Origin: Lama guanicoe
Taxonomy: Eukaryota
DNA length: 64,000 nucleotides
NCBI GenBank assembly: GCA_013239625.1
Contig: MU053810.1
Span: 6,048,122 to 6,112,121 of the forward strand
Direction: 5' to 3'
Below the pieces are notes generated by a model, which was given only the letters and a program-made list of their open reading frames with translations, was not told the origin of the DNA and made no database searches. Each line of letters begins with the position of its first letter. Positions within the stretch are counted from its first letter, which is position 1. The position numbers and the translations under genes were made by a program. Of this stretch, positions 1-64,000 are shown in pieces.

Positions 1-1346
1 ACTTGACCCTTTAGAAAGAAATTGTCGTTTGGTTTCCCAATTTATTTAGTCTTTCTTTAATAACTCTTAAGAGTAGAGTTCAACTTACTTTTATTCATGC
101 TATTTAAAGTTTCCTCTGATCTCTAGATGGGTATTGTATTTTCATGCCTCTTTGCCTTTGCTTACAGTGTTGTTTTTGCGTGGATTTTCCTCTCTGCACC
201 CCCTCCCTGTGTACTGTCTTCTCTTTGGCTGCCACGTACAGCTGGCTAACGTGGTAGGTTTCTTTTACGGAGTCTTCTGATGGTGCTCCAGGAATATTAG
301 TCATTTTTTTCCTCTCGTGCTCTATTTGTGCTTTGTGTGCAATTAAAGACTTTTAAATAATTATAGTTAATAACATTCAAAAGAATAAATGCAATGTACA
401 TTATAAAATTTATAATAAAATAAACATCTAGGACTCTGCCACCAAAGTTAACTAGAAAATGGTCAGTTCTGTTTCTTCTGCCTATGTGTTTCAATCCATA
501 CTCCCAAGGGTATGTTTCTTATTTCCTTGCCCCTTTAAAAAGTTTATCACATATATGTGAACCCTTAAATAATTATTAATTTTGTGTTTAATAAAAATAG
601 ATTGAGGCTGTATGTAGTCTGGCATGGCCTGCTTTTTTAAATTCAGTATTATGTTTCTACTGTTTATCTGTATTTCATACGTAGTTCATTCGTAGTAGTT
701 CATTCTCATTAATGCAATATTTTAAGAATAAATGTGCCACTTATTTGTATTTACACTTAATGTGTCTGGAATTGTTCTTTTCCTTATAGTGTGAGAGAGA
801 GATTCATTCTCAGTATTTCTTTCTGTATGGCAAGCTATTTGCCCTGTTTAAATAATGCATTCTTTCCCCCTGTGCAATCACTGTAAGGTAACAAGTTTCC
901 TTGTTATGAGTATGAATTTATTTCTGAGTTTTATCTTCATTTGAATTGGTCCATTTATTTAACCCTATTTAAGAACCCTGCTGTCTTAATAATAATAAAC
1001 TAAGCAGGCAAGTTCCCCTTTCCACCCCCCCATCTATTAAGAACCATGTCTCGGTCATTCTTTCCCCTTTGCCCTTCCATTCCATGAAAAACCCAGTTAC
1101 GGTTTTTATTGAGAGGCACTGAAGCTTTAGATCAGTTTGGGGAGATTTGGCATCAGTGCAGCATTGGCTGGGAGTAGGGGAATGAGAGGTGTATCTGGCT
1201 GTGAGTAGATAGGGTGTGTTACACCTGGCTTTGTAGACCACACAGTTTTTTTTTTTCAGGTTAATCTGGTAAACCCTTATTTCACAAACCCTCATTTCAC
1301 AATTTCCATATTTATTCCCTTATAACTACACAGGGAGAAAGTTTCT

Positions 1347-1589
1347 TTGGGTTTTATTCAGGGTGTTTTGATTATTTGGGGGATAGAATATTTCTATTGA
1401 TCATTTTATGTTCCCCGTTGTTGTTATTCTCTGTCACAACTCTTTATATTATTCATACTTGTCATAGTATTGGGTTTTATTCAGGGTGTTTTGATTATTT
1501 GGGGGGTAGAATATTTCTATTGATCATTTTATGTTCCCGTTGTTGTTATTCTCTGTCACAAGTCTATATTATTCATACTTGTCATAGTA
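1347..1589. repeat. Tandem duplication, two units of about 120 bp
   Basis: 1347-1469 and 1470-1589 are near-identical (TTGGGTTTTATTCAGGGTG...CATACTTGTCATAGTA). Confidence 0.92.
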
Positions 1590-2091
1590 AGTCAGGAGAG
1601 CTTCCTAGTCGTGTTATATTAGCTCTAGGTTGTGCCTTTCAAATTCCAGGGTCTCGTTTACTTTGTGTTAGGCTTCTGCAGCTATGTCCTTGTTACCAGC
1701 TCATCGCAGTGCAGTTTCACTTCATGTGCAGAAAGTGCAATATAAAATATTAATAAAATTCAAAAAATTATTTTTGTAGAAGTTTGCCTTTTTTTTCTTT
1801 TTTAGTTTTATTAGGTAACATTAGTTTAACTCTACATAGATAATATATTACATGTAAATACATGTATACAATATACTGCACATTTTTTTTTTTAGTTTAC
1901 ATATATGTACTGATCATTGTTTCTAAGAACAGATTAGAGGTTTAGCTTTTTAAACTTGCGGCTGATAGTTACCAAAGAAATAGATAACCGCAAAATAAGA
2001 ATCAATAGAATGCAGTAATCCAATCTTAAAGGACAGTCAAATGTGCTTACACATATTCAAGAAATCAGTCATTTAAGTTATAAATAAAAGC

Positions 2092-4199: not shown

Positions 4200-5120
4200 G
4201 GATGAAAAATAGATGATTTTAAGGAGTGTTGTGGACAGCACGATGTTTCAGAAAAATACCGAAAGAACTAGAGCCATTTTGAATTCGTTTTTCCCGTGAA
4301 GACTGGGAGCTATGTGGGATATTCTTTTCAACAGGGTTCAAGCAGGTGCGATTTAGCTAACTACAATTGGTAACATCAGTGACCCTCAAGATCCTTAATT
4401 TTTTCATTTTGTCTTCTCAAGTTTAGTTTTTTGGTAAGATCACCATGGTTATACCGTGGAGAACAGATTAGAAAGAGGCTAGGTTGGATGCAGGTGGACC
4501 AGTTAGAAGGCTGTTGCAGTAGCCAGGGTGAGCAAGGGAGGGTATAGCTCAGAGGTGGAGTGTGTGCTTAGCGTGCACTGGGTCCTAGGTTCAATCCCCA
4601 GCACCTCCATTAAAAATAAATGAATAGCCAAAGTGAGAGATGATCCTAGATTGACTAGGATTAAACTGTCAGAAAGAGAAGGAAACAAATTTCAGTTGGT
4701 TAAGGGTAAATGTGTCAAGATTTAGTGATACTGAATATGTGAATATGTGAATATGTGAAATAAGTGCTAGATGTCTGAACTGGATAACATGATAGAGAAC
4801 TGAAGTAGGAAGTAGAGTTGAGTCGACTATTTGCATGAATTTGGGCACAGTCATTTTGAGGTGCCATTGAAATAGCCGGGAGGAACATCACAGGTGTTTG
4901 TATGATTCTGTAGCACAGAGGAGAGGTCTAGAATATGTATAGAGAAGTTTATGTGTGTGTATAGTAACTTAAACCTGAATGCGGATGAGTTTGCCAAGGA
5001 GAGGTTATAAAGAGGAAGAGCCTACGACTAAACCTGGAGGCACCATGTCTGCCAGGTGACCTTGTCAAAGAGACAGAGAATGGGTATTCAGGGAGTTAGG
5101 AGCAAACCAGGGTGAGTGGT
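4200..5120. mobile_element. Degraded L2 LINE segment
   Basis: L2-like purine-rich text (agatcaccatggtta...gagaacagattag; aatttgggcacagtcattttgaggtgcc). Confidence 0.55.
4536..4626 (+). mobile_element. tRNA-derived SINE (camelid Vic-1-like)
   Basis: GGGAGGGTATAGCTCAG A-box, GGTTCAATCCC B-box, A-rich tail; degenerate TSD tagccagggtgag / tagccaaagtgag. Confidence 0.85.
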
Positions 5121-13000: not shown

Positions 13001-13270
<270 letters not shown>

Positions 13271-16200: not shown

Positions 16201-16890
16201 GTGATACCTTAAGGAAATAAAAAGCCTTGTTTTGAATGTGTTTGGGAGACATTTAAGTGGAAAATGTTTTAGGTTGTGAATAACAATTACAGTGTTTTGA
16301 GCTGTAAGATACAGAGGTCATTTTCCTTCCAGCACTCCTGAACCCCCTCTCATCTGTATCACAAACACACACTTAGCAGAGGAGGTTGAGCTCCACGAGA
16401 GGTTAAAGGTTACACTATTGCAAAGTAGCAGAGTTCAACTAGAATTTTTATTCCCAATCTAATTTTCCTTTCATTATTTCATTTCATAGTTTATACTTAA
16501 ATGCTATTTTGTTTGTTTGTTTCTTGTTTGCTTGAAATAGCAAATGAGGGAAGATGTGTGGTCATATTTAGAATATTTCTAAGTTACCAAAGAATAGTAT
16601 TTATTTAGTGTATTGTAATGCTATCTTATTAATATATCTTATTTCAAGGATAATAAGGTTATTCACGTTTAATTTCTAAATCCAGGTGTGAAATGTAGTG
16701 TCTAGGTAGAATTCCAGACGTTGTTTAATCTAGATAAAAATGAGCCACATCATTCTAAACAAACATTGAAGAATACCAAAATTCTAGCACAGTTTCTTTC
16801 TAGAAATGAGAATATATCAAAGGCAAAGTGTATTCCTTTTTTGGATGATTTTCTTAATGTTGCTTTTATGGTCTCTTGAAAAATGATAGA

Positions 16891-16896
16891 GTGCTC

Positions 16897-16947
<51 letters not shown>

Positions 16948-16997
16948 GGCCCCTGCGCAAGGATGACACGCAAATTCGTGAAGCGTTCCATATTTTT
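16891..16997 (+). pseudogene. RNU6: Full-length U6 snRNA retrocopy (107 nt), part of a chimeric insertion 16878-17053
   Basis: Identical by eye to canonical U6 (GTGCTCGCTTCGGCAGCAC...ACAGAGA...CCATATTTTT); followed by 26 nt of foreign sequence and an A-tail; 13-bp TSD GAAAAATGATAGA at 16878-16890 and 17041-17053; no U6 TATA/PSE recognised upstream. Confidence 0.95.
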
Positions 16998-17951
16998 GAA
17001 ACAAGGAAATAAAGGCTTAATTTAAAAAAAAAGAAAAAAAGAAAAATGATAGATACATGTTTAGAATGGCAAATGTTATGGAAAGAACTTGAGACTCTCA
17101 AATATCTAGAAAAAGTTAGACTCTGCAACCTGAATATAGTTTCTCTTAAGTGGTACGGTACAAGCAGTGGTGCTTTCGACCCATCGTTTCGTACATACAG
17201 GCTAGTCGGCTTTCATAGAAGTAACCTTTAGGTTCAGAGCAGCTTTTCTTCTGTTTTGTATTATGGCCAGATTTGTTCCGAAGAAAATTTAGAGCTAAAG
17301 CAACTTACAAATTCCTAGCAGTATTGGCCTGCCTGAGATTTGGATTCATAAGCTTCACATGAGAGGGTTCTCCGACTCTGTTTCTTAATCTGGCTAAGCT
17401 ATTATTGTGATTTGTAATTTTGTTTTTAAAAACTGAGGTGCTAGGTCCTTTTCTGAATTTTGAATTTTAATATTTGCAATTTATCACTTTAAAATTTCAT
17501 ACTACTGTTCAAATAATGAGTAGTCATACATGGGCAGTCATTTTCCAGAAGTCTGAGTCTTGGTCACTGATGTATTAAAGTAGCCATACGTTTAATGAGG
17601 TATAGTGTTTGTATTTAAATCAGTTTTGTTTTTTTAATCATCTATGATTTTGTTGGGTTAGTATCATAGAATAAAATACTGACCTTTTTAGAAATTATTG
17701 GATCTACATGAGATTGGCATAATTAAGTGGTGATTTCCTTGTAAGTATATTACTTTGAAAAACTATGCGATACCCGTGATATTTCCCTACTGCCTATGAA
17801 TATCTTTCCTTTACAAACTTTGCGAAGTCTGGCTGGGTAAAAAGCTTGTTAACATGAATTGAGTGACTGTAAATGTAAACCTGTCCTATCAGATATAACG
17901 TATCCAGAATTAATTTCTACTTTTTCCCCCCCTTTTTTTGCCAACGTAAAG

Positions 17952-17966
17952 TGGCTAAAAGCCAAG
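17952..17966 (+). CDS. ABI1: ABI1 15-nt microexon (exon 4), WLKAK
   Basis: Pyrimidine tract then aag|TGGCTAAAAGCCAAG|gtaaga; frame-preserving; matches the ABI1 GVK-WLKAK-HGN sequence. Confidence 0.92.
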
Positions 17967-41149: not shown

Positions 41150-41271
41150 TTTTTTTGGGGGGGGGTAATTAGATTTATTTTTATTTAATTTTTAGCGGAG
41201 GTACTGGGGAGTGAACCCAGGACCTTGTGCATGGCTAAGCACACGCTCTACCACTGAGCTACACCCTCCCC
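41150..41271 (-). mobile_element. Vic-1-like SINE
   Basis: Reverse complement of the 4536 SINE (gaacccaggacc...ctctaccactgagctacaccctcccc). Confidence 0.85.
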
Positions 41272-43821
41272 TACTTCCCCCTATTTTTAAGTATTCAAGT
41301 TTTTTTTTTTAAAGTTTCTATGTATATTAAAATTTTTAAGTGAAACAGCCTAAAGTGAAAGTTGAGGACATAGATACATAATACATAAAAGTATAAAAGA
41401 ACTTACAATGAAAATCAACAGTTCCCTTCTTCCAAAGGCACCAAATTTATCTGTTGGTTTCAGTATTTCAATTAATAATCTGAGTTCTTAATCTGTTGCC
41501 TTTCTGCTAAGACAGACGAGGATTCAGCCCACGACCCCTCTCCTAACCTGCCCGGATTGTTGCCTTTAGTTCTTCCAGTGATGACATGTGTCATCCTGTA
41601 GCATCACGTCCGGCTTCATCCTGCGTGAGGACAGCAGCCCTCCTGTTCTTCCCCCTAAGGTAACTGTGCACTAGAGAGACTTACATTCCATTCTGTTCCA
41701 TTCTGTACCCTTGTTACCCTTGTTTTCATGTTGGCTCCTTCTGAAAGCTAAACTAATAAAAAATTACTACTCCCATTATGTAAAAATGTTTACTGCAGAA
41801 TCAAGACTTGTACTGTGATTTTATTTCCTTCTCTGTGGTTCCATCATTCAGAACAGAATGTAAGATCATGGTCGAAAGGCCTCTGATGTTCTATACCAAG
41901 TGACACAAAATACAACTTAAAACACGACGCGTTTTAGTTTGCTCTGCCTTCCTGTACGGAAGGCCACTGCCGCATGTAACTGCCTCCTTTTCTTTGTTAC
42001 CTTGACTGCTTTCCAGCTCTGCTGTGCAGCTGCCATCTCAGGAGGACTTTTCATTCAACTTGCTGGTTCGTTCCACTCGTTTTACTACCTACGTCTTTCT
42101 CTTTTGGTGTTTCCATATTTTTGTTGCAGTTTATCCACAGATAACTTACCCAGGATATGTGCATCGGAAGTCAGTTTTTTAGTTCTTAAGTGTGGTAATG
42201 ACTCCTGCTTCATACTTACTGGGCGGTTGGACCAGATACAGAAGTCTAGTCGCTGCCTTCCAGGGCCCGGGGCTTTGCTCTACACTGAGCAAGCTGTCGT
42301 CTCTTTCCCTTTTGTTGGTGACTTTTTTTCTTTAACTTTTGTGTTTTGAGTCTGTTCCTTAAAATAGTTGTTACACGATTGTACTGATCTTCTTAGCTTT
42401 TCTCATTTTCTTCCACTGCTGTTTTCATTTTGGAAGACTTCCTCAGTGTCACATCCCAGCAATTCTTTGGCGTTAGTTTTTCACTTTCATTTAACATTTC
42501 TAAGGGCTTGTTCTTTGTTTTTTTAAAAATATTCTCCTGTTCTTGCTTTATGAATGCAGTATTTTTGAGTCCTGTTTTTTTCCCTGCTTCTTTCTTTGAC
42601 TTGGTCTCTTTCATGCAGTGAGCTTCAGTCAACTGCTTAGCAGTCCTACTAAATAAATCCCAGTTGTCCATTCATACTTGTGACAGAATAGGGCCTAGGA
42701 GCCCTGTCGGGGGAACGGAGCTAGAATTTACAAGTCTTTGGAGAATTTTCTTAGAGAACATTCCTGTGGATTTTCTTCCTAAGTGCATTTCTGCGCAGAC
42801 TTGCTGGAACTTCACTGTTTGGCACAAGAGCTACAATTAATTTCCCTCTTTTCAGTCCCACTTCTTACTTCAGCCTCAGTAACACCTTTATTTCTGAAGC
42901 CGGAACCGCTCCCAGGTATGTCAACTCCATCAGCTCCGGCCCCCTCATGCCGAGTTTCCTATAGTACTGCCAAACTGCCCTCTAAGGGAGGGGGGTGCGT
43001 ACAGCAAATTATGATGCTCAACAGTATAGTTAAAAAAAGAAATACACCCTTTGGAGAGGTTTTGCTCTGTGGAAATTTAAAAAATCTGAAAGGTAATTAT
43101 TTGGGATTCTTTCAAGAATTAGGCTAACGACAGATCTCGGATCACAGCTGCTTACTAACAATTGCTCACTCCATCTCACTCGAGATCTTTTGTCTCCAAA
43201 TGACTTTGGATTTGGTTTGGAAACGGCTCATTCTCAAGATAGTCATCAAAACTGATAATATGCAAAAAGATCTGCCTTCCACAGAAGTTCTGAGGATACG
43301 TGGCCGTGTATCAGAAACAAACTTTAACCTTCAGTGGCTAAAGCTTAATTTGCACATGTTGGTTTAAAAAAACTGCTTTTCTGTTACCATTTCTTTAGTT
43401 ACATTCATAGCGGTTCAGTAGGATGGACTAGGAAAGAGCGGTTTTGAGAGGTCTCCTGGCGTGTGGCTGTGGCAAGGATGAGGGCTCGGACAAGGAGGGG
43501 TATCTGGGTGCCTGGGAGCAGTGTGGCTGCTGGGATGGGCGTGGGGAAGACTGCTCCAAACCAGTGGCTCTTGGCCCAGACTGCATGCTGCAGTCACTTG
43601 ATAGCTTCCAAAAAATGTTAGTGCCCAAGCCCTACCCAAGACCCAATAAATCAGAATCTTTGGGAAGAATTCTAGCAGAAATATGAATTATCTAAGTTTT
43701 TCCCTCTCAGTTTCTATCAAATCAAGAATTGACCAAACTTGGTCTTGTATCGTTTGTTTGGTTCAAGAGCTCTGCCACACCATACCTGCTCTTGCCTTTC
43801 TTCTTTTAGAAATAATCTCAC

Positions 43822-44057: not shown

Positions 44058-44400
44058 GGGGCGGAGCCATGATGGTGGAGTGGAGACTCACAGCCCACCC
44101 TCTCTCACAAATACACCAAGAATTACATCTACAAACCCAGTGAATCGCACAGAACACCTACTGAACTCTCTGGCAGAGTGTCTCTCATTTCGAAATATAG
44201 GATTCTCACAAAATCCAATAAACAAGTTTATACAGTAGAGCACAGGGAACCATAGTATCTTGTAGTAACTTATGATGAAAAAGAATATGAAAATGAATAT
44301 ATGTATGTTCCTATGTGACTGAAGTATTGTGCTGTACACCAGAAACTGACAACATTGTAAACAGACTATACTTCAATAAAAATATATTTAAAAAAAAAAA
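44058..44400 (+). mobile_element. Mini-L1: L1 5' UTR start joined directly to L1 3' end and poly(A)
   Basis: 44058-44216 resembles the L1 5' UTR at 53300 onward; 44217-44400 resembles the L1 3' ends at 46015-46190 and 55970-56160. Confidence 0.75.
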
Positions 44401-44779: not shown

Positions 44780-46190
44780 CAGCCCAGAAATAAGCCCACA
44801 GACCTACGGTTAATTAACCTGCAACGAAGGAGGCAAGAATATACAATAGAGAAGAAGTCTCTTCAGTACATGGTGTTGGGAAAGCCGGACAGCAGCATGT
44901 AAATCAATGAAGGCAGATCACGCCCTCACACCATAACACAAAAATAAACTCAAAATGGCTTAAAGACTTAAATATAAGACATAATAAACCTCCTAGAAGA
45001 AAACATAGGCAAAACATTCTCTGACTTAGATCTTAGCAATGTTCTCCTAGGGCACTCTACCAAGGGAACAGAAATAAAGGCAAAAAATTAACAAATGGGA
45101 CCTAATTAAACTTACAAGCTTTTGCACAGTAAAGGAAACCATAAGCGAAACAGAACAAACTATGGGAGAAAATATTTGCCAATGATGCGACTGACAAAGT
45201 TTTAGTTTCCAAAATAAATAAGTAGCTCATACAACTTAATAACAAAAACAATCCAATCAAAAATGGGCAAAGACCTAAGCAAGCAATTCTCCAGTGAAGA
45301 CATACAAATGGACAACAGGCACATGAGAAAATGCTCAATGTTACTAATTATCAGAGAAATGCAAATCAAAACAACAATGAGGTATCACCTCACACCAGTC
45401 AGAATGGCCATCATTCAAAAGTCCACAAATGACAAATGCTGGAGAGGCTGTGGAGAAAAGGGAACCCTCCTATACTGCTGGTGGGAATGTAGTTTGGTGC
45501 AGCCACTTTGGAAAACAGGATGGAGGTTCCTCAAGGAACTAAAAATAGACTTACCATATGATCCAGCCATCCCACTTCTGGGCATATATCTGGAGGGAAC
45601 TCTAATTTGAAAAGATACATGCACCCCAGTGTTCACAGCAGCACTACATACAATAGCCGAGACATGGAAACACCGTAAATGGCCATCGACAGATGATAAA
45701 GAAGTTGTGGTATATTTATACAATGGAATACTACTCAGCCATAGAGAATAAAATAATGCCACTTGCAGCAACATGGATGGGCCCAGAGATCATCATTCTA
45801 AGTGAAGCAAGCCAGAAAGAGAGAGAAAAATACCATATATCACTTATAAGTGGAATCTAAAAAAAAAAGAAAAGAGGACACTAATGAACACATCTACAAC
45901 ACAGAAAAAGACTTGCAGACATAGTAATCAATCTTACAGTTACCAGGGAAGGGGGTGAGAAAGGATAAATTTGGGAGTTTGAGATTTGCAAATGTTGGCC
46001 ATTACATATAAAAATAGATAAAAAACAGATTTCTTCTGTATAGCACAGGGAACAATGTTCAATATTGTGTAATAACCTTTAATGAAAGAATATGAAAATG
46101 AATGTATGTATATATATGCGTGACTGGGACATTGTGCTGCACACTAGAAACTGACACACTATAAATGACTGTACTTCAATCAAAAAAAAA
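44780..46190 (+). mobile_element. 5'-truncated L1 (ORF2 3' part, 3' UTR, A-tail)
   Basis: ORF 45263-45610 is L1 ORF2 ([21 protein letters not shown]...[13 protein letters not shown]). Confidence 0.93.
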
Positions 46191-49742: not shown

Positions 49743-49870
49743 TTTTTTTTAGTTTTTTTTAATGAAGTGGGGTAATTAGCTTTATTTAGTTAGAAGTACT
49801 GGGAATTGAACCCAGGACCTAATGCATGCATGCTAGGCACGCTCTCTACCACTGAGCTATACCCTCCCCC
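49743..49870 (-). mobile_element. Vic-1-like SINE
   Basis: gggaattgaacccaggacc...ctctaccactgagctataccctcccc. Confidence 0.85.
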
Positions 49871-50865
49871 TCTCCCCTTGTGTGTCAGAAACTGATCAAA
49901 TGCAAGGTCACTGGTTTCTAGAATATCAAAATGGAATCATGGAGGTCTTTGGAAGACGTGATTTATCTGCGTAAATTCTAAGAGGAGGCAAAATCTCTAA
50001 GACTGAAAGTTACTAAAATTTGAGGCCAAAGAGCTAATTTTTAATTTCACGGCATGGTGATGAACATCTCACTGCTTTGCTGAATGACAAATTAAATGTT
50101 ACTCAGATAAAAATCTATTAAAATGATGTCCAAATACCAGCTAATGTCCCACTTCTTTCAAACAGCACTTGGCATGGCCAGAGGTGGTGTGGCCCGGGGC
50201 CAGGGCAGGCTCTGGAAATGCCTGCCTTGTGAGTCACGGCAGCGTCTTGGAAGCTCCCTCAGCTTTTCATCCATAGGAGGGAGACTGAAGGCAGCTGTAC
50301 TTACTTCCTGCACTGACAGCCCCCTGGTTTTGCAGGAAGGAGGAACTGTGTGGTTCCAGGGGTGCCTTCCACTGACGTCTTGACACTTTGCGGCCAGGGC
50401 CAAGGCACTGGGAGCTGCAAACAGTCCCATTAGACTTCTGGAACTGGAGGATTTCTCAGGCTTGGAAGCCCTTCCTGGGCCTTTTTAACGGGCTCTGAGG
50501 CACACTCAAAGTCCTGTCCTACAATCAAGATGTGGAAACCCGCCACCCTGTCAGTGCCCCAAATACACGGAAGCACTCTTGACGCCTCCTTAAATTTAGC
50601 ACACCGCTCTTAGTTTACATAGTCTCTCCACGAATATTCTCTCAGTTAATCCTCACAACGACCCCAGGAGGCAGCTGTCTCCTCAATGTTACAGAGGACA
50701 CAGGTGGATCGCAGAGGCACAATGACTGGCCTGGACACCCCGGTCCCTGTGCCCTCTTACAGACACTTCTCCATCTCCTGCGAGACCTGCCCGCCCGCTG
50801 AGCCCGGAAGGAACTGGTTCTGCAGGGCTACCTGGCAGCGCATCCAGAGAGTTCATAAAACCTAC

Positions 50866-50979
50866 CTGCTGACAAGCAAATAAGACAGGGCCGGTGGCTA
50901 AGCCGAGCTTCAGGTCGGCCGATGTTGGTTTGCCCATCTGGTCAGAACACGAGGTGAAGTCCAGGACGTCATCTATCAG
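50866..50979 (-). CDS. PDSS1: PDSS1 exon 10 (114 nt), LIDDVLDFTSCSDQMGKPTSADLKLGLATGPVLFACQQ (second Asp-rich motif)
   Basis: cag|CTGATA and CAG|gtaggt; DDxxD motif of trans-prenyltransferases. Confidence 0.97.
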
Positions 50980-51084
50980 CTGGCAGGAGGGAGAAAGGGT
51001 TGTCGCGGGCACCCCCCCCCCAGCGTCCCTGCTGCCCGTCCCACCGCACCAGCAGGCTGCCCGCTGACCAAGCCGAGGACCAAC

Positions 51085-51165
51085 CTGGAAAGCGATGCCC
51101 ACGTTCCTTCCATATTGATAGGCAATCTCGTGCACCACTGGGTCAGGGCATCCCAGGACAGAGAC
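51085..51165 (-). CDS. PDSS1: PDSS1 exon 9 (81 nt), VSVLGCPDPVVHEIAYQYGRNVGIAFQ
   Basis: cag|GTCTCT and CAG|gttggt. Confidence 0.96.
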
Positions 51166-53297
51166 CTGAAAGAAAGAATCCAGAGATAAGGCACTGGGTG
51201 GCAGAAGCAGGGCAGCCAACCCCGGCGTGGAAGGAGCAACATGTCCTTTCTCTTAGGAAAGAGGCAGTGAGGCTGGATGATGCTACCTGGAGACCAAACA
51301 CGTGCAGAGTACCTGTGCTTTTAATGAAAGGATTTCTGCCTCAGATTGTTTTCTTAAACTTTAAGAAAACCATCCTTTTCCCCATCACAGGGTAAGCCGT
51401 GTTTCCCACCATGTAGAAAAACCCAAGAGATGACTGGACCAGTTCTGCTGTAAGCCTTTTAGACATGCAAAAGAAAGAGACTCCAGTAATGTGAAATGCT
51501 GGCTTCCAGGACCCGGCAACCTCGACAAACTGTTGGCATTATTTTTATTTTTCCATTGACTTACCCTTATTTTAGAGATAAGACATCTAATCTGATGTAA
51601 TCACATACAGGAAATTGCTATGCATATTTCCCCATTTGCAGTCCTTTCTTACAGTCGTCTTTGGTGATTTCACTTAATTTGAAATGCAGTTTTTTTCTTG
51701 ATGCATCTGTAAGAGCCTCAGGCCTCGAGCTTCAGACACATACTATTCCTTCATTCTCAAATGACTTTCCTTGGTCCTAAGGTTTCCAGATTTCTCTCAC
51801 AAGTTAACTGCATAAAAACATTTTTCCTCTTTTCAGTCGGGGAGAAATAGGACTTCTAAATCTTTGGTAAAACTCCAAAAAGTCAACTGGCACCAGCCAC
51901 TCAGCGCACTTCCTGCTGCTCTGCTAAGCATGCTAAGCAGGCCAGGCCACCCTGCAAACGACAAAGATGATAAAAACCAAAATGGGGGCAGGAGGGACAC
52001 TCCTCTACCGGAGGGGGCAGGTAGGTACTGACCCACGAGAAAGTCAGATGGGGCTCCTCCAGCCCTTCTGTCACTGGTCCCTGACCTCAGCCCCCACCTC
52101 TGGCAGGGACCCTGCTTGGCTCAGGCATCGGTGTGCCGGGGGGTGAGGGCTGGGCTCTGCAGCTGGCCGGCAAGGGCGGCCCCTTAAAATCACCACTGTG
52201 ACCTTCGTGTGTTAGTGAGTCTGTGCTTCAGTTTCCTCATCTGGGAGACGTGGGACCAAAAGCACTTACAGGCCCACACGTGGTGCTGCCAGGAAACCCT
52301 CCCTGGTATGTTTGCTGTTACCACTAACGGCCCTCCTCCTCCTGGGGCATTTGATGCAGGAACAGGACAGGGCGGGTGGCCCACGCACCTCTGTGAACCG
52401 AAGCCGGGGCCCATTCCCTGCTCAGCCCGGAGGATGTCTTTGACGACATAATGACTGAGTGCGTAATGTCTGGCCAAACGTTCTCCATAAAAACGCACAC
52501 GTCATAAAAGGTCAGGCAGCCACTTAACTTGAATGAATAATAAGCTCAACTGCTTTCAACAGCAAAGACCTCACCCCTCGCGGGCACGGCCCCGCGGGCT
52601 GTAAGGAGGGATCCCCCTTCCACGAGCGACCCTAGGAGGTGACACGCGAGACAGCCTAGACGTTTGAGAAGTCAAGAAAGGCATCAACTCGGCTGAAAGC
52701 GTCAGTGTCGCGAGATCTGGGCTGCCTGGGAAATGCCGAGCTCCGACCGCAACGAGACCCCTTTCTAGACAGAAAAACCTCACACGGCGGTTCCGCAGCG
52801 CGGGTGACGCCGCTTCCTCCACACAAAACAGCACAGAAATACAACCTTCCTTCCTGAGAAGTAGAAGGTTTTAAAAACCCCATTCTATTTCTAAACTCAA
52901 TGAATTAAAATTTATGGAGTACGTAGGACGGGCACTTTACATTCTCTCAGTTAAGTCTCACGACATCCCATAAATATTTCTTCTGCGGGTGAGGATGGTA
53001 AAAGCTAACCATTCCTGAGATTTCTCACGTGTCCCTCACTTAGGAGGAAGGAGCGGAGGCACAGAAGGTGCCAGGCGTTGCAGGACCAGGAAATGGTGGG
53101 ATCAGAGTTGAATTCCAGTGGTCTCCCTCCAGTGACTGCTCGCAATCACCAAGTTCATAACCTGGCTCCAGTCACACAAACCCAACTAGAAACAACGTAA
53201 CTTGTACAACTTGGCTTGTAGTCTTCAAAATACCAAGGTGATGTAAGAAAAAAGAAATACCCAGGAATTACCATTAAGAGACTAAAGACTCAGGACA

Positions 53298-56162
53298 CAG
53301 AGGATCAAGACGGTGGAGTAGGAGGCCGAGGAGCTCGCCTCCCAGCACCAAGCGTATCAAAAATACACTGACACGTGGAACAATTCCCACAGAAAACCAA
53401 CTGGAAACTGGCAGAAGACCTCTTACACAATCAAAGCTGCAAAAAAGATCTCTACATAACTGTGTAGGATGGGTAAAAAAAAAAAAAGAAAAAGGCATCA
53501 GGATGGGACAGCGTCCCTAGGAGGGATGGTGAAGGAAGGCGGGAAGGTCCACAAAGGCAGGCCCCTCACCCAGGGGAGCCCCCTGTCTCCCCGGAGGTCC
53601 ACTGGGACAGGCAGAGGGGCTGGAGGGGCCTGACTCCGCTGGGAGGCGTGCGCATGTGCCGACTTGCTAGCTGCAGAGATCCGCACATGCGCACTTGGCT
53701 GCCGCAGGGCCTTGTGCCTGCGCTTCCCGGTCCAAAAGTCAAGGGGCGCTGCCAGTATCAACGGCGGCTAGGGGCTGAATCTCAGGGGTCCGCCCAGGAG
53801 AGGACTTGGTCTAGTTGCGCAGACAGCCCAGAGGGCCTGGGATATGGTCAACAGGGCCTATTTTTCCCTCACATATGGTGGGGGTGGGTCCAGCAGTGGT
53901 GGGCCTGGCATCCACAATGGGTGATGCCACAGAAACGCACGTCTTGAGTGGACAGCCCCTGGGAGGAGTAGGGCATCCGTTCACTTCCCAGCAGGAGTGC
54001 TCTGGTTTGCCCACCCCACACCGCAGCTTAGAGCTGCATCTGAGGCTGTCACCATCTGCAGATGACATGATACTCTACACAGAGAACCATAATGACTCTA
54101 TGCAAAAACTATTAGAACGTATAAATGAATTCAGCAAGGCAGCAGGATACAAGATTAATGTAACAAAATCTGTTGCATTTCTTTATGCTAACAATGAAAT
54201 ATCAGAAGGTTAAAAAAAAAATCCCATTTAAAACCTCATCGAAAAAAACCCCTACAAATAAACTTAACCAAGGAGGTGAAAAACCAATACATTGGAAACT
54301 ATAACATTGATAAAGAAAACTCAGGATGATTCCAAGAAATGGAAAGATATCCCATGCTCTTGGACTGGAAGAATTAATACTGTTAAAATGGCCATCCTAC
54401 CCAAAGCAAGCTATAGATTTAATGCAATCCCTATCAAATTACCCAGGACATTTTTCACAGAACTTGAATAGTCCTAAAATTTATACGGAATCACCAAAGA
54501 CCCAGAATTGCCAAAGCAATCCTGAGGAAAAAGAACAAAGCTGGAGGCATAACCCTTCCAGACTTCAGATACTACAAGATACAGTAATCAAAACTGTATG
54601 CTATTGGCACAAAAACAGACATATCGATCAGTAGAACAGAACAGAGAGCCCAGAAATAAACCTACACACCCACGGTCAATCGATCTGCAACAAAGGAAGC
54701 AAGAATATACAATGGAAAAAAGACAATCTTTCAACAAGTGGTGTTCAGAAAGCTGGACAGTTGCATGTAAATCAATGAAATTAAAACACTCCCTCACACC
54801 ATATACAAGAATAAACTCCAAACGGTTTAAACACCTAAATGTAAGACATGACACTATAAAACTCCTAGAAGGGAACATAGGCAAAACATTCTCAGACATA
54901 AGTCAGCAATATTTTCTTAGGTCAGTCTCCCAAGGCAAAAGAAATAAAAGTAAAAGTGAACAAATGAGACCTAATCAAACTTAAAATCTTTTGCACAGTA
55001 AAGGAGACCAACAACAAAATAAGACAACCTACAGACTGGGAGAAAATATTTGCACATGATGCCACTGACAAGGGGTTAATATTCAAAATATACAAATAAC
55101 TCATACAACTCAATATCAAAAAAACAAACAACCCAAACAAAAAATGAACAGAAGACCTAAGTAGACATTTCTCCAAAGAAGACATGCAGATGGCCAATGA
55201 GCACATGAAGAGATGTTCAACGTCGCTAATTAGAGGAATGCAAATCAAAACTACAATGAGGTATCACCTCACATAGGTCAGAATGGCCATCATTAAAAAG
55301 TCAACAAATAACAAACGCTGGAAAGGGTGTGAAGAGGGAATCCTTTCACACTGTTGGTGAGTATGTAAATTGGTGCAGCCACTATAGAAAACAGTATGGA
55401 AGTTGCTTAAAAAACTAAAGACAGAGCTACCATATGATCCAGCAATCCCATTCCTGGGCCTGTATCTGGAAAAGATAAAAACTCTAATTCGAAAAGATAC
55501 ATGTACCCCCAATATTCATAGCAGCACTATTTACAATAAGCAAGACATGGAAACAACCCAAGTGTCCATCAACAGACGACTGGCTTAAGAAGATGTGTTT
55601 GGTGTGTGTGTGTGTGTGTACATATATATATATACGTATATATATATATATATATACGTATATATATATACACACACACATCTAATATAAAGGAATATTA
55701 TTTCACAGCCATGAAAAAAGAATTAAAATATTGCCATTTGTAGCAACATGGATGGACCTAGAGAATATTATACTAAGCAAAGTAAGTCAGAGAGACAAAT
55801 ATATCACCTATATGTGGAATCTTAAAAAATAATATAAATGAATCTATATACAAAATAGAAACAGACTCACAGACATAGAAAATAAAACTTACGGTTACCA
55901 TAGGGAAAAGAGAGGTGCAGGGATAAATTAGGAGTACAGGATTAACCGATACAAACTACTGTAAGTAAAACAGATAAGCAACAAGGATTTACTGAACAGC
56001 ACAGGGAACTACATTCAGTATCTTGTGATAACCTAGAGGGGAGACAATCTGAAATATATATTATTTATATATATAATAATCTGAAACATCTAATACCACG
56101 TTGCTGTACACTTGAAACTAGCACAATATTGTAAGTCAACTACACTTCAATTAAAATAAAAA
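53298..56162 (+). mobile_element. Internally deleted L1 (5' UTR fused to ORF2 RT-to-3' end), inserted in an old L1MC-like remnant
   Basis: GC-rich 5' UTR 53298-54045, then ORF2 text from [10 protein letters not shown] at about 54050 to 3' UTR and A-tail; degenerate TSD aaagactcaggaca / aaagattcttgaca. Confidence 0.88.
55603..55680. repeat. Compound (TG)n(TA)n(CA)n microsatellite
   Basis: Read directly from the sequence. Confidence 0.9.
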
Positions 56163-56896
56163 GATTCTTGACAACTAAATGCAACATGAGATCCTGGACT
56201 GGATTCTGGATCAGAAAAAAAAATTTTCCCGTTTGTTAGAACAAGAAAATTGTTAAAACTGGAGTAAGATCTATCTACAGATTATCAAAATCCCAAAAAT
56301 AGGTGTTCTGCAGATTTGACCCACATATCAAAATTCTGCAGTGGCCCCAATGTGGCTTTGAAAATGAGGCAACAGGAAGACAGTCCATTGATTCCAGGCC
56401 ACACGCAGCACTGGAGAGAATACAAATTCAGGAAAAAAAAGTGCAAAAAATAAATGAATCTGCAGGATCATCATACCCAGTTCTAGGTTCAAATCCTGGC
56501 TCAGCTACTGTCTGACAGCAGAGAGGAGACACCAGGGCCCTCTGGAGTCAGTCCTGTCAGATTTTCTGGGGACCAGGTCACAGCGTTCATCGGTAAGCTA
56601 CAGAATGGATCTGGCATGACTACATACAGAAGCCAGTAGCCAATCATCTTTTAAGATTACTTCTACTTTGACATCAATCAATGTTGGTGTTGCAGATCAC
56701 TCCTAAACAGTCCTCTCTCAGATTCAATACTATTTTCCATTAAATAATCCTTAGGACAATGAATTATATGCTGCTAAGCTTCCTTCAAATTCCTATAATA
56801 TCTTGGAATTCCATTAGTTCTTCTGTAACAATTCTGATGTTTAAATTTTCCTTACCCTTTTTTTGGGTAACTCTAATGTGCTTTTTAAAAACATTA

Positions 56897-56998
56897 TTTG
56901 TGGGGGATAATTAGGTCTATTTATTTATTTTTAGAGGAGGTACTGGGGATTGAACCCAGGAACTTGTACATGCTAAGCATGAGCTATACCCTCCCCCC
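56897..56998 (-). mobile_element. Vic-1-like SINE (internally shortened)
   Basis: ggaggtactggggattgaacccagg...gagctataccctcccc. Confidence 0.8.
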
Positions 56999-58915
56999 TC
57001 TAATTTGCTTTGCACGCATTCTTTTAAAGCCACAGTCTTTGCGTTTTAAATACCAGGAGCACATAAAAATAGTAATTTTGAATATATAACACCTCTGGAA
57101 CATCTCTATCCATAGGCACTTAAATTTAGAAACTTTTATTCAGAGAGCTCACACTATGATTTTGCTTTATTATTCTAACAGCTCTGGAGCTTAGGAATAA
57201 ATCACATGAAAAGCGGGTAGTTCTGGGATGAAGCCAGCATGCCTCCCAGTGGAGGGCGTAAAACATCTCTTTTGTGATGAGGGTCGAGCCATGTTAATTA
57301 TGTAAGTCCCTTTTTACTTGCTAATCTGTGAAGAATGAGGTCTTCTTCATAATCGAATACACGTGCTATCCTGTCTTTGGCTTCCTCAGCAGAGGACAGT
57401 GAATTCAGTTCTTCCTTGAGGCCATGGGTTCATTTCTGTAGGCTCTGCACAGGATCCGATCACTGAGCTCCCCAGCCTGGTTCTGGCTCCAGTGGGGGCT
57501 GCTGGCTGTCGCTGTGGGAGGTCCACATTGTGTGGACAGCAACCCTCAGTGTTTCCAGTTTCAACTGCCTCACCAGCTGCTCGTACTTCTAATTGCAGTG
57601 TCAAGCTTGGGAGGTCGGCACTTAACACACTAGTGGTGGCTTATGAGGACGGGTCTCCCATCTCCTTGGATATTTTCATCGTCAAGTAGAAGATGATCAA
57701 TGAAGGACTCATGTCACAGCTTTATGGGGCCCATTTAAATCAGTCATTCTTTTATTTAGCATTCTACTGTCTATCATATTTTTGTCTCTCTCTCTCTTTT
57801 TTTTTTTTTTTGAAAAGCACACTTGAAATTTCTTGGAAATTAGAAAAAAAAAAGCTCTTTCAACAAAAAGACAAAAATGGCTAAGATTGCAGCCAGCATG
57901 TTCTACATAATTCACATTCCTCAGGGTTTCAATTAGGTCTTTTTAGGAAGAAATGTTGGCCTCATTCTATTCTGGCTCACAATCACACATTTCTTGACAC
58001 TTTTCCAAACAGAGACACTATTGGCAAGGGACTTTTTCACCTGGGAGGCCTGAGAAAAAGCTCTCTTCAGCTGTAATTATGTTGAGCATATCATGACACT
58101 AATTGACATTTGCTTCTTAGAAGCCTTTTTTTCTTGTTGCTTTAATTACAAGGGCCTCTTAATTGCCCAGTTTTCATCTCATGTTTATCTGTTAGGCTGA
58201 GAGATGGTCAGATGGACAATTCTCTGGAGAGAACTGTCTCTCATTCACGAGCTAGCACTGAACACCACATTTTAGTCTACAGGTTAAGGATCATATGAAC
58301 TGATTTTTGAAAAGGAAAATTATGTGAAGAGTGGCGAGAAGGCCAAGGAGAAAGCAAAGGGTGAAAAAAGTTATGGTTCACATTCAGTTTACACTTGGAG
58401 GAAAAATGGTTTGTTTGTATTTCATAAAATTGGAAGGATCTACTACTTATGAAGAAGTACACAGAACACTAGTACACTCTAGTGCGCATTTTCCTCTGGG
58501 TCAATATTATATTTAAGAACACAGCACTTCATAACTTTGTACGTGTAAAATGTCAGACATAGTGTGTGATAAACACAAGAGAAACTATGATAAGTTGCTC
58601 AAAATGTTGCAGTTTGGAAGTTAGATTGGGGAATATATTATAAAGCTAATTTTCATTCAATCCTTGGGAGGAAAGATAAAAACTTAAATGTCTGCACAGC
58701 AGAAGAAGTCAGCAAAGGTGAAAACCACAGAAGTTCTTTGCTGTTTGTGGGAGGTAATTCGTTTCTCATTGACCTCTTGGGATTCTGATTACTATTTAAG
58801 TTTCTCCAGTGAAATTTTTTCTAGGAGAATTAGCTCCCAAGGAAAAGCTAGGAGGTTTTTTGTTTTTGTTTTTGTTTTTGTTTTTTTAACTATCTAAAAG
58901 ACAGGACGTACATAC

Positions 58916-59025
58916 TGCTTTACAACTGTTGGCAATCAGACTTGCAGTCTTCTTGAATGTCTTTTCAAGGTAGTGTGCAAATCTTTCATTCTCATTTTCT
59001 TTTGACCCAAGCTGAAGAAATTCAC
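58916..59025 (-). CDS. PDSS1: PDSS1 exon 8 (110 nt), GEFLQLGSKENENERFAHYLEKTFKKTASLIANSCKA
   Basis: tag|GTGAAT and GCA|gtatgt; KTASL motif. Confidence 0.96.
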
Positions 59026-59126
59026 CTATAAAGAAAGAAAGGGGTCATTTGAGATATGGATTTTTTTTTGCCTGCCAAAATCCTAGGAGATTAAATAAAA
59101 AAGAAGAAAAGTCAGAATTAACCTAC

Positions 59127-59238
59127 CACGCACCAAATCTTCAATCACCTGGGTTAAAATAGATATAACAGTTGTATTTCCAGTTCGTGCCAGAGCCATC
59201 GATGCCGCAGAAAGAATTAAATCCCCAGCAAGGACAGC
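59127..59238 (-). CDS. PDSS1: PDSS1 exon 7 (112 nt), AVLAGDLILSAASMALARTGNTTVISILTQVIEDLVR
   Basis: tag|GCTGTC and GTG|gtaggt; AVLAGD motif. Confidence 0.96.
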
Positions 59239-61777
59239 CTAGAAAAGAAGAAAAACTTAAAGTATCCGAGCATTGGAGCCAATGAAGTTGACTTCTCAGA
59301 AGAGAAACATTGAACGGGAGGGCGGGGTCCCCTTGGGTCTAAGATTTTCCCCCTCCTCTTCCTCAGCATGATGGTATCAGTCACAGATGTGGGAGGTGTT
59401 TGAACTGGATTGGCTCTCAGAGATTACGGGGTCTGTCTTTCCAGTTCAGAGCTGAAGGAGGCGGGAAGTAGCTGACCCTCTGGCTTCATTCCTGGCCCTG
59501 GCAAAACGGCAAAACACAGCTGCCTTTAGTTTAGTTACGCTGGACCATTCGCTCTCCCCTCAAACCAGGCGGTTTAGCCTCTGCACTTACTGTTTTTTTC
59601 TGCTCAATAAGTCTCTCCCCTTCTTCACCTGGCAGACTCATTTGCATACTCAGGTGGCACCTACAGGAAGTTCACTCAGACCCTCTGTCTCATCTTCTGT
59701 GAACACGGCATCCCCTGGACACTGTTGTCTTCCCACATTTTTTTCCTATTTACAAACTCCTAAGGGCATGGACTGGGAATTGTCCAGCTAGTATGCAGCA
59801 TGCACCAGCGCCTGGCACAACCCACGCTTTTCTCAATGAAAACTAACCAAGGAATCTTGGCTCCAAGCTCAATGATCTTTGCACCCCATGACACTGCCCC
59901 TCATTCCAGGACAAAAAATCTTTTTCACTAAACCCTAGACAACATTTTTCCAATCTTCTTTAGATTGTGAGTACATGTCTATACTGTATTTAAAACTAAT
60001 TATAAATTATGCATGATTGAATTGCACGCTGTAATCAAATACACTAATCTGCACAAAGACATGCATAAGTGTTACAGAGTAGCTATAAATGACAGAGTTC
60101 GTGGAGCTCTTAATTCATGGAATTGGCAACATTACCACATTTTAAGTTTTTAATGTCTGTCCTCTAGTTTCTAAAATCAGTGACATTCAGTATGTTTACC
60201 AATTGATCATTTTGTGTAACGTACATTGTATAAGCTATACAATTGATATAAACGTGACTATACACTTATAAAATCACTGTACACATTACGATATATAAGC
60301 ACACACACATCCACCCCTACATCACTAGCCACTGAGAGCTCAGGACCGCTAGGCTTTGACTTCTTTCCTCTCCTGGCCCTGGGGATCCCAGAGGCCAAAA
60401 GGTTCCAGCATTTGGAACTGAAGCTGCCACCTTGGGGATGGCTAGGGTAAGGGGCTAAGGGAAAGATGTGCCAGGGTCCCAGGCAGGGGAACGAGGCTCA
60501 TGGAGAAGCTATTCTGTGAATGGATTTTTACTGGTAACACAGTAGTTTTGTTTGAGGGACAGAATAGTGGAGGAGACTGGCAGGCGGCCCCGTGCAGGGC
60601 AGACCAGTCTCACGGCTCAGAGGCAGGTGACAGTGGAAACACAGTCTTTCACGCGTGCTCAGAAAAGTAGAGGCAGTTGGCAGAGGGGACCAGCCAAGGA
60701 GAAAACCTTAACTTCAAGTTCACTCATTCCTCCTCCTCCGCCCATACACTCGGGTACCAAGGCTTTAGGACAGGCCCTGAAAACGGCCCCAGCCGACTGC
60801 AGGACGTGCCACGGAGGCACCCGTGACCTCTCCACAATGCAGCTCCACCCTTCCCACCAACAGTCTGATGCATGGAGTTCTGTCCACAGGACAAAAACCT
60901 CGTCGTCTAAAAATCTGAAATCAGAGGCTTACCATTGAAACTGCAGGGCTTGACACAGCAAAACCAGCATGTCGAGATAATAATTAAGATGCATTTCTTC
61001 TTTGACTCCAATTAGAAAACAGGTGGGAACCAGGTCCGACAGACAGGAGAGAGAGGGGCAGGGAAACTTCCGTCCCGTGAATGTTGTGTTTGTGCTTCGG
61101 GAGGGCAGGGGAGGGGGTGCCCGTGCGCTGGGAGACGCCGCTCCCAGGAGGCCTGCGGGTCTTGTCTGCCCAACTTCACCCCTTCCTCAACCCATGACTT
61201 AAACATCCTCAAACAAGACTCCACATTCTACACGTCCCCTTCAAGAAATGCTACTGAAATACGTAACACATACACATGAACCAACTCAATTATAGTGCCT
61301 CTATTTAAAAAGGTAAAAATTTCATGGGCAAACAGTACCCCTCTGAGATAGATACAGATGGGTATTCAGACATATATACACATGGTTTCAGTTGTATGTA
61401 CTTGCCCTGACACTCCGGCATGTGGCAATTAATACATGAAGTAATTAATGTGAATCTGAGTGATCTCAGCCCCAAAGCAAAAGGTGTGATTCCTCATGAA
61501 ATATGCTTTCTGGATAACTACAAAAATCTCTTTCCTTAACCAAATTCTATATAAAACTGTGAATAAACAGGAATGCTAAGTTGTTTTTTTTTCCCCTATG
61601 GTATTATCTATGATCAAACAGCCATATACAGACCAGACATGGAAACTATTCTGAAAGCTGGCAGACCACATTTGAGGAAGCATATTTCATTTTTCAATGA
61701 GACAACTCTGAAAAATAAATGCAATTCAATGAACGTGGGATTTGCTAAGAAAGAGTTAAAAAACCCAAAAGCCGTAC

Positions 61778-61919
61778 CTTCTTTTCCCCCCAGATCTTAT
61801 TAACTGTGTGTTTTCCTCTCCGGGAACTGGCGTCGTCGATGACGTCGTCATGCACCAGGCTGGCAGTGTGGATCATTTCTGCTATTAAGGCTATGGTGCG
61901 CTGGCTGGCTTGCACATCT
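61778..61919 (-). CDS. PDSS1: PDSS1 exon 6 (142 nt), DVQASQRTIALIAEMIHTASLVHDDVIDDASSRRGKHTVNKIWGEKK (first Asp-rich motif)
   Basis: tag|AGATGT and AAG|gtacgg; HDDVIDD...RRG motif; upstream exons lie outside the window. Confidence 0.97.
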
Positions 61920-64000
61920 CTAGTTAACAGAAAGCAATGCTTTTTTAACACAGACGCCACCTATAACCTTCTCAGCAATCATCTTGTGAAAACTGGACAT
62001 CAGATCTAGTATAAAGAATTTTATTTCTCTAAGAGAAACTGCATAAAAACTTCGGCTTCCCTACATAGCCGATTCTATCTTCTGGAGAACATATTAAAAA
62101 CGCAGAAGATACCCTGCACCAGGATTATGTTTTAGGGACACATTAAGAAGTAGAATTTATATAATTAACGACAGAAAAAGGATAAACATCTTAGAAGTCT
62201 GGGTATCAGGCTGAAGAACTGTCTTTATGTCTTGTAACGGTGGTCTGAGTCAGTTGATCAAGTTTACAATCAGGTTATAATTAAATCCCAGGGATGGATG
62301 GGGAAGATGGGGAAGACGGGTGAATTTAATATTAGCTTAAATGTTTAGTAAGAAGACCTGCTGGAATCCCTAATTCCAATTCATATTTAACCTGCAAATT
62401 AGAAATTTAAATGTTTCCTTCCCAGATTTAACACAAAACACTCCCAAGAAGACAGACTGATGTGAGTTTTACAGTTAAAAGGGAACCCCATTTCTTTTTA
62501 ATTATCATCATCTATGCGAATTTTTAAAAACTGAATTTCCAAAAAATCAAACTGAGGAAAATAACCAGCTGAATTTTCTGAACGTAAAACAGAAGGCTGG
62601 CTTAAACACATGCTAACCAAACGTTTCACTTATTCCAATACCTTACTTTGCAAATATCACCACGTTCTCTCTCAGAGGAGAGAAGCGTTAGAGGGATACT
62701 GAAATGTGGCTTTTTCTTTAAAAAAAAAAAAAATCTAATCTGAACATCTGCAAAAGCCAGTGCTCATCCGAATTCCTCAGATCTAGCAGAAGCCATGAAA
62801 AATGAAGTGGAACTGCACTACAGACGCTGGGATTTAACCGCAAACACCGAATCAGCCCGAACGGTATCTTCCTGACTTGCTTTAAATGTAATTTTAAAAT
62901 GTGGTGCTTTGCCGGCAACTCTTAAGATTTTTAGAACTAAACCTCAGAACCTTCCAACTGCTGTGAGCCCGGAAATCAACTGTAAAGTGCTGCTCATTAT
63001 TTATTAATATGTCACAACTTCAACAGTTCTAGATGCTTCCGATCACAACACATTTTTTGGAGGGGCAGGAGTAAAGCAACCGAGAAAGGGGTACAAATCA
63101 TCCTGCGAAACCACTTTGGTTGAGGAGAAAATGGACTAAGCAGCTTCTAAGCTTTTTCTGAATCCCTCAGCAAGCCATTTACAGAGCCTAGAGAAGGGAG
63201 CTTGGACCTTAAATATTTTTCAGGTAAATTTACTGGATCCTGTCTTACCTGAGTTGCTTGTGCAAGAACAGATGTAGCCTTATACAGTTGTTTTTTTAAA
63301 AATAAATATAAAGGCTATGTTTTTAGAATATTTTCTCAAGTGAATTTCACTCACTGAAATATATACCTGCTACTGGTTAACAGCAGATCTGACGTGAAAA
63401 CAACTGGTAAGACTCGAGCCTTCCTCACACATCTACAGGTTGGGTACCACATCCATCAGCACAAACCACGTCGGCAGGCAGGGCCCCTGCTGTCGAGCTG
63501 CACTCGGACAGGAGTGCTCACTGAGATGCTGGGGCTTTTGTCTTTGTTTTAGTGCCTTCCAAGTACAAAGATTTCTTACAATAGTTTGAAATTTCATAGA
63601 CTCTACATGTATGTAAAAAATGCCATATTGCATGGCTAAATTCCCGACGGGTGAAACAGGATTCCTGCTTAGAATGTTCTTCCTTGGCATTGTGACACAG
63701 CCCCTACCTAGGAGAAACATATTTTAGACACTTTATCATTTTTCCTGATGTACTTTTTCCTCTACAATGAGGCTTTGGTGTGTGTCAGCTTCTATCTGGA
63801 AAACACCGCCACAGTGTGTCCACAGCACAGCACTTGGTCTGGAACTCGAATCTCCAGATTACAAGAACAACTCGCACTGTCTTTAAGACGAAATCTTGGA
63901 AGTACCAAACTGAGTCATGCCATCAGAAGCTGGGCACCATTTCTACTTCCTGCTGCCACACTTTCCCAACTTTGGGAGACGAGCTAAGAAAAGCCAGCCA

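Follow-up and report, generated by a model that had tools for sequence, protein, structure and literature searches.

A 64,000-nt stretch of Lama guanicoe DNA (contig MU053810.1, positions 6,048,122 to 6,112,121; hereafter the window) contains a U6 snRNA copy fused to a very short second piece within intron 3 of ABI1. A single event of target-primed reverse transcription driven by L1 very probably placed this copy of a two-part U6-RPLP0 RNA in the intron. The evidence comprises the anatomy of the insert, an exact 21-nt match between the second piece and a primer for the 3′ end of human RPLP0 mRNA, and the comparison of the insert with the known classes of U6 chimeras.

Anatomy of the insert in ABI1 intron 3

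The insert and its flanking exons comprise the following features, with positions given in the window.

13034–13210, + strand: upstream ABI1 exon (exon 3 by inference), 177 nt, bounded by AG/GT; Pfam Abi_HHR, E 2.1e-35, with frame and splice sites
16876–16882, − strand: L1-endonuclease-like nick site, bottom strand 5′-TTTTC/AA-3′; from sequence, the same site being listed in Doucet 2015
16878–16890, + strand: 5′ copy of the TSD, 13 bp; 100% identity to 17041–17053
16891–16997, + strand: full-length U6 snRNA copy, 107 nt, with a five-T end; Rfam RF00026 and human U6 comparison
16998–17023, + strand: partner piece, 26 nt, most likely a 3′-terminal fragment of RPLP0 mRNA; human RPLP0 primer match
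17008–17013, + strand: AATAAA hexamer within the partner, with the A-tail 10 nt further 3′; from sequence
17024–17040, + strand: A-tail of the form A9-G-A7, 17 nt; from sequence
17041–17053, + strand: 3′ copy of the TSD, 13 bp; sequence identity to the 5′ copy
17952–17966, + strand: alternative ABI1 microexon (exon 4), 15 nt, WLKAK, bounded by AG/GT; human exon 4 match

The flanking Abi_HHR exon and the 15-nt exon 4 place the insert in the sense orientation in ABI1 intron 3, which is 4741 nt long. The original prediction had named this intron as the host, and the assignment holds, since the 15-nt exon fits human ABI1 exon 4, an alternative exon of five residues, 155–159 (bioRxiv 10.1101/2023.05.26.542350). 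A sense U6 copy and an AATAAA upstream of the microexon were also correctly anticipated; the distance proposed, about 950 nt, is in fact 899 nt when measured from where the 3′ TSD copy ends and 939 nt when measured from where the AATAAA ends.

The U6 copy scores 118.8 bits against Rfam RF00026 (E 1.8e-30), covering model positions 1–105 of 105, and, when aligned by eye with the human template from Table S9 of Moldovan 2019, is identical at 106 of 106 positions. The copy ends in five T, as against four in that template. U6 and the partner abut directly, and the only A-tail is at the far 3′ end. The two TSD copies are identical at 13 of 13 positions and cannot be extended on either side; a repeat of at least 12 nt in the same geometry was found at none of 3415 anchor points across the ABI1 span, the longest being 11 nt. 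The one TSD encloses both U6 and the partner and lies at an L1-type cleavage site, TTTTC/AA, which is one change from the L1 consensus 5′-TTTT/A and is the L1 cleavage site of chimera 10 in Suppl. Table 1 of Doucet 2015 (PMC4476161). Hence the main structural claims of the original prediction are borne out: a 107-nt U6 free of mismatches with a five-T end, a 26-nt piece with its AATAAA at 17008–17013 followed by an A-tail, and a perfect 13-bp TSD at an L1-endonuclease-like site.

The A-tail reads A9-G-A7 and the TSD begins with G-A5 (17024–17046). Owing to this resemblance, the G inside the tail may be a product of slippage, or of priming more than once on the target, and not of a later mutation.

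The single TSD around both parts, together with the absence of an A-tail after U6, indicates a single insertion, and two separate insertions are rejected on the same grounds. The reading of the locus as one L1-type insertion of a U6/mRNA chimera is thus supported. In the proposed sequence of events, L1 ORF2p would nick the bottom strand at TTTTC/AA and, having recruited the end of an RPLP0 mRNA in trans, prime on its poly(A) tail; reverse transcription would then proceed through 26 nt of the RPLP0 3′ UTR and the entire mature U6 snRNA, and cleavage of the second strand 13 bp away would generate the TSD. L1 as the enzyme, host RPLP0 mRNA as the donor, and the manner in which the two RNAs were joined are elements that we infer; the nick, the tail, and the TSD together suggest priming by L1 ORF2p in trans on poly(A). 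Since the 3′ part is not L1, mobilisation was necessarily in trans.

Identity of the partner and joining of the two RNAs

The original prediction had matched the 26-nt piece to the end of the RPLP0 3′ UTR, so that RPLP0 was named as the donor before the primer match described here was found. Positions 16999–17019 are identical, over 21 of 21 consecutive bases, to the reverse complement of a 26-nt reverse primer for human RPLP0 (NM_001002; PMC3141519, Table 2), and the agreement over the whole primer is 23 of 26. By chance, an exact match of 21 nt is expected at 9e-13 per position under the local base composition, or 9e-5 for 1e8 positions. A full-text search of approximately 8.4 million papers with three spellings of an 18-nt motif of the partner matched, in the text searched, only the RPLP0 reverse primer of PMC3141519, and a 22-nt motif had 0 exact matches in the metagenome contigs scanned. 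Elsewhere in the window, the longest exact word of the primer is 11 nt; the primer is A-rich, and an unrelated site (minus strand near 1803) matches it at 21 of 26 positions ungapped, without a long exact run. Furthermore, the AATAAA lies 10 nt ahead of the A-tail, as expected of an mRNA end. Three of the last five primer bases are unlike the window, the comparison sequence being a human primer; this mismatched end may reflect a species difference or a different donor. On these comparisons, the partner is most likely the 3′ end of a 5′-truncated RPLP0 mRNA in the same orientation as U6, and the earlier naming of RPLP0 as the likely partner is backed.

Other repeats and genes in the window were compared or located as follows.

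4536–4624 (+), 41196–41275 (−), 49749–49869 (−), and 56894–56990 (−): four copies of a tRNA-derived simple SINE, three of which pass the Rfam tRNA threshold
about 45000–46190, + strand: L1 3′ fragment, C-terminus of ORF2p; PDB sequence search E 5.6e-54; an A9 run at 46182 follows its 3′ end
about 50689–61960, − strand: polyprenyl synthetase exons, with Pfam E 1.6e-16 for 61748–61960

The SINE copies are 75–84% identical to the copy at 41196, and we take them to resemble camelid Vic-1. In SINEBase, vic-1 is a simple camel SINE. Pfam named none of five L1-like fragments, and a PDB sequence search of one of the five identified L1 ORF2p. A similar putative L1 end precedes an A12 run at 44390. The polyprenyl synthetase gene is presumably PDSS1, a neighbour convergent with ABI1. 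In an open frame at 1265–1753 (+), a stretch of about 20 codons occurs twice, which suggests a short local duplication; Tandem Repeats Finder gave no report of a duplication in 1265–1753.

The partner is unlike the verified L1 3′ end near 46150–46190 and unlike the three SINE tails compared among the four copies found, and 17004–17023 has no better ungapped match in the rest of the window than 16 of 20, in the A-rich flank past a SINE tail. The earlier statement that the 26-nt piece is not an L1 3′ end is accordingly consistent with the single L1 3′ end verified here. A U6/L1 chimera was rejected because the partner matches RPLP0 and is unlike that L1 end, the one L1 end compared. A poly(A) U6 retrocopy does not describe the insert either, given the 26 nt between U6 and the A-tail.

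Several other origins were weighed. The partner could be another polyadenylated RNA with a similar end, such as an RPLP0 retrocopy that is transcribed, or the 3′ end of an L1 or SINE subfamily of the host beyond those sampled in the window; the bases just before the A-tail do depart from human RPLP0, with agreement at 23 of 26, and a single verified L1 3′ end in the window served as the basis of comparison. This origin is nevertheless quite unlikely in view of the 21-nt exact RPLP0 match and the dissimilarity of the L1 end and the three SINE tails, the best match in the window reaching only 16 of 20. Alternatively, the insert could be the daughter of an older source locus, either a U6-RPLP0 chimera that arose before it or a U6 gene with read-through into a flank containing this sequence, in which case the joint would occur in several copies. 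We regard this as highly improbable: U6 has no internal promoter, and such chimeras are reported as not self-propagating (PMC11838501, PMC6789731); furthermore, a flank with 21 nt of RPLP0 identity would itself require a prior chimera.

An origin as an active U6 gene, or as an artefact of the assembly, is extremely improbable, even though the U6 sequence is unmutated. In the 300 nt upstream, the best match to the PSE consensus has 7 mismatches in 18, with 9–17 mismatches at the expected position, and neither an octamer nor a TATA-like word was found in the same 300 nt. True U6 genes are described as having no TSD (Doucet 2015, section 5, PMC4476161), and the TSD and A-tail are marks of a retrocopy. 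An active U6 gene with a type 3 Pol III promoter was therefore rejected, in agreement with the original prediction that the copy is not a genuine U6 gene, and an artefact would not produce a perfect TSD at an L1-type nick.

With a single L1-mediated insertion of a U6-RPLP0 RNA as the preferred reading, two routes of joining may be considered. Template switching is one published route by which U6 is joined to a partner (Doucet 2015, PMC4476161). The other is ligation by RtcB of the U6 2′,3′-cyclic phosphate to a 5′-OH RNA, described for L1 and GFP RNA (Moldovan 2019, PMC6789731), with U6 ligated to GFP RNA in HeLa extract (PMC6789731). Joining before insertion, with RtcB ligating U6 to a 5′-OH RPLP0 fragment, is modestly favoured in our analysis, because mature U6 ends in five U bearing a cyclic phosphate (Moldovan 2019, PMC6789731) and the same five-T form is present here. 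The T run of five compares with the 4–8 T expected of an RtcB ligation product joined precisely without microhomology. Template switching instead would be a substantial possibility. The human RPLP0 3′ UTR is presumably T-rich directly upstream of the matched piece; a T shared at the joint is thus possible and would suit template switching.

Age of the insertion and its relation to ABI1

No difference was found over 106 U6 sites and the two 13-bp TSD copies, which bounds divergence at ≤2.3% (95%), or at 1.2% if the 7 CpG, counted by eye, mutate ten times faster. With rates assumed at 1.5–2.5e-9 per year, the sequence supports an insertion age under about 5–15 My, and the youth of the insertion claimed originally is upheld; this support does not extend to the polymorphism suggested there. 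A listing of sequencing runs gave 24 rows, 14 of them with 0.92–0.96 of the words (7 studies, 3 organism labels; 6 RNA rows). As 31-mers tied to the insertion joints make up only 103 of the 2471 in the stretch compared (4.2%), and those wholly within U6 77 (3.1%), such shares cannot tell a missing insert from ordinary SNPs, and neither these rows nor the RNA rows enter the conclusions.

Regarding the host gene, the insert could act on ABI1 either through its AATAAA, by causing intronic polyadenylation, or through the sense U6, by pairing with U2 or U4 and shifting the inclusion of exon 4. Its sense orientation, 899 nt ahead of an alternative exon that alters ABI1 DNA binding in human cells (bioRxiv 10.1101/2023.05.26.542350), is in keeping with such a role. 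The intron itself argues otherwise. It holds eight sense AATAAA hexamers, seven besides the inserted one, and the density over the gene span is 1.46 per kb; the inserted hexamer has no upstream TGTA, and the T fraction downstream of it is 0.22, below that of four of the seven other hexamers (0.37–0.44). In addition, sense intronic U6 chimeras are ordinary, since 8 of the 13 intronic human U6/L1 copies detected in RNA lie in sense (PMC6789731). An effect of this kind is consequently very unlikely. The original prediction of a cryptic poly(A) signal acting on ABI1 is unsupported, given the eight hexamers in the intron and the T-poor region past the inserted one, and so is a regulatory effect of the insert in general. 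Furthermore, its genomic A-tail, with an A fraction of 0.90 directly past the hexamer, would yield false signals in oligo-dT 3′-end data at the insert through internal priming. Most likely the U6-RPLP0 copy is an inert pseudogene whose only transcription is within the ABI1 pre-mRNA, from which it is spliced out with the intron.

Comparison with known U6 chimeras

Chimeras of U6 with mRNA are rare. The 13 full-length human U6 chimeras in Suppl. Table 1 of Doucet 2015 (PMC4476161) comprise 12 with L1 (119–4885 nt) and one with ACAA2 mRNA (1314 nt). The present insert is pristine, and its partner is shorter than in any of those 13. If the donor is host RPLP0 and the joint is without microhomology, the insert would be another natural case that fits ligation of U6 by RtcB to a piece of cellular mRNA and subsequent retrotransposition of the product in trans. 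Confinement to some lineages or individuals would make the insert a clean marker for phylogeny. Nothing points to a function, and the importance of the insert is modest.

A broader reading is that a subclass has been overlooked in which U6 is ligated to very short 3′-terminal fragments of abundant mRNAs, and that the insert is its visible example. Chimeras with such short ends could fall into the "poly(A) U6" bin when a pipeline finds no repeat, and this bin is unusually large in alpaca: of 36 U6 copies analysed, 27 were classed as poly(A) and 6 as carrying a repeat (Doucet 2015, PMC4476161), with no by-locus listing of them in the covered parts of that source. If many poly(A) U6 copies hide mRNA ends of 20–40 nt, they would preserve, in fossil form, the sites at which germ-line mRNAs were cleaved a short way 5′ of the poly(A) signal. 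Ligation and template switching could then be weighed against each other genome-wide from the joints of such copies. We consider this subclass rather unlikely, since the Doucet 2015 pipeline includes a manual check of unknown partners and admits class errors of 5–15% (section 15, PMC4476161).

In the literature searched, nothing was found on this locus, and no report joining U6 chimeras with RPLP0 was found; Buzdin 2003 and Garcia-Perez 2007, which may list ribosomal-protein partners, lay beyond the scope of that search. Neither PMC6789731 nor PMC11838501 contains "RPLP0" in its main text, and "RPL" and "RPS" have 0 occurrences in two of the three supplement files of Doucet 2015. The U6/processed-pseudogene class is credited by Doucet 2015 (PMC4476161) to Buzdin 2003 and Garcia-Perez 2007, and class features of such retrocopies are given in PMC2104539.

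Among the closest counterparts is U6-ACAA2 (Doucet 2015, row 23), in which a full-length U6 is likewise joined directly, in the same orientation, to a 5′-truncated mRNA end within one TSD at an L1-type cleavage site (15 bp there, 13 bp here); by contrast, its partner measures 1314 nt as against 26 nt plus a tail, and the present insert has a probable RPLP0 partner and a non-primate mammal as its host. U6/L1 chimeric pseudogenes (Buzdin 2002; Doucet 2015; Moldovan 2019) share the full-length U6 with a T-run end, the TSD, and the L1 cleavage site, and frequently lie in introns in the sense orientation (8 of 13), whereas their 3′ part is L1, of 119–4885 nt in the 12 full-length rows, and that of the insert is not. 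Poly(A) U6 retrocopies (Doucet 2015) resemble it in that U6 is full length, the 3′ end is A-rich, and a TSD lies within 100 nt; here, however, U6 and the tail are separated by a templated, non-A stretch of 26 nt that includes a poly(A) signal. A U5 copy followed by 29 nt of "sequence unknown" (Doucet 2015, row 9) likewise pairs an snRNA, within a TSD, with a very short stretch that is not a repeat, although that U5 is 3′-truncated and its partner was left unnamed. Judged by its sequence, the insert is a member of the already described class of U6/processed-pseudogene chimeras, and is unusual only in the shortness of its partner.
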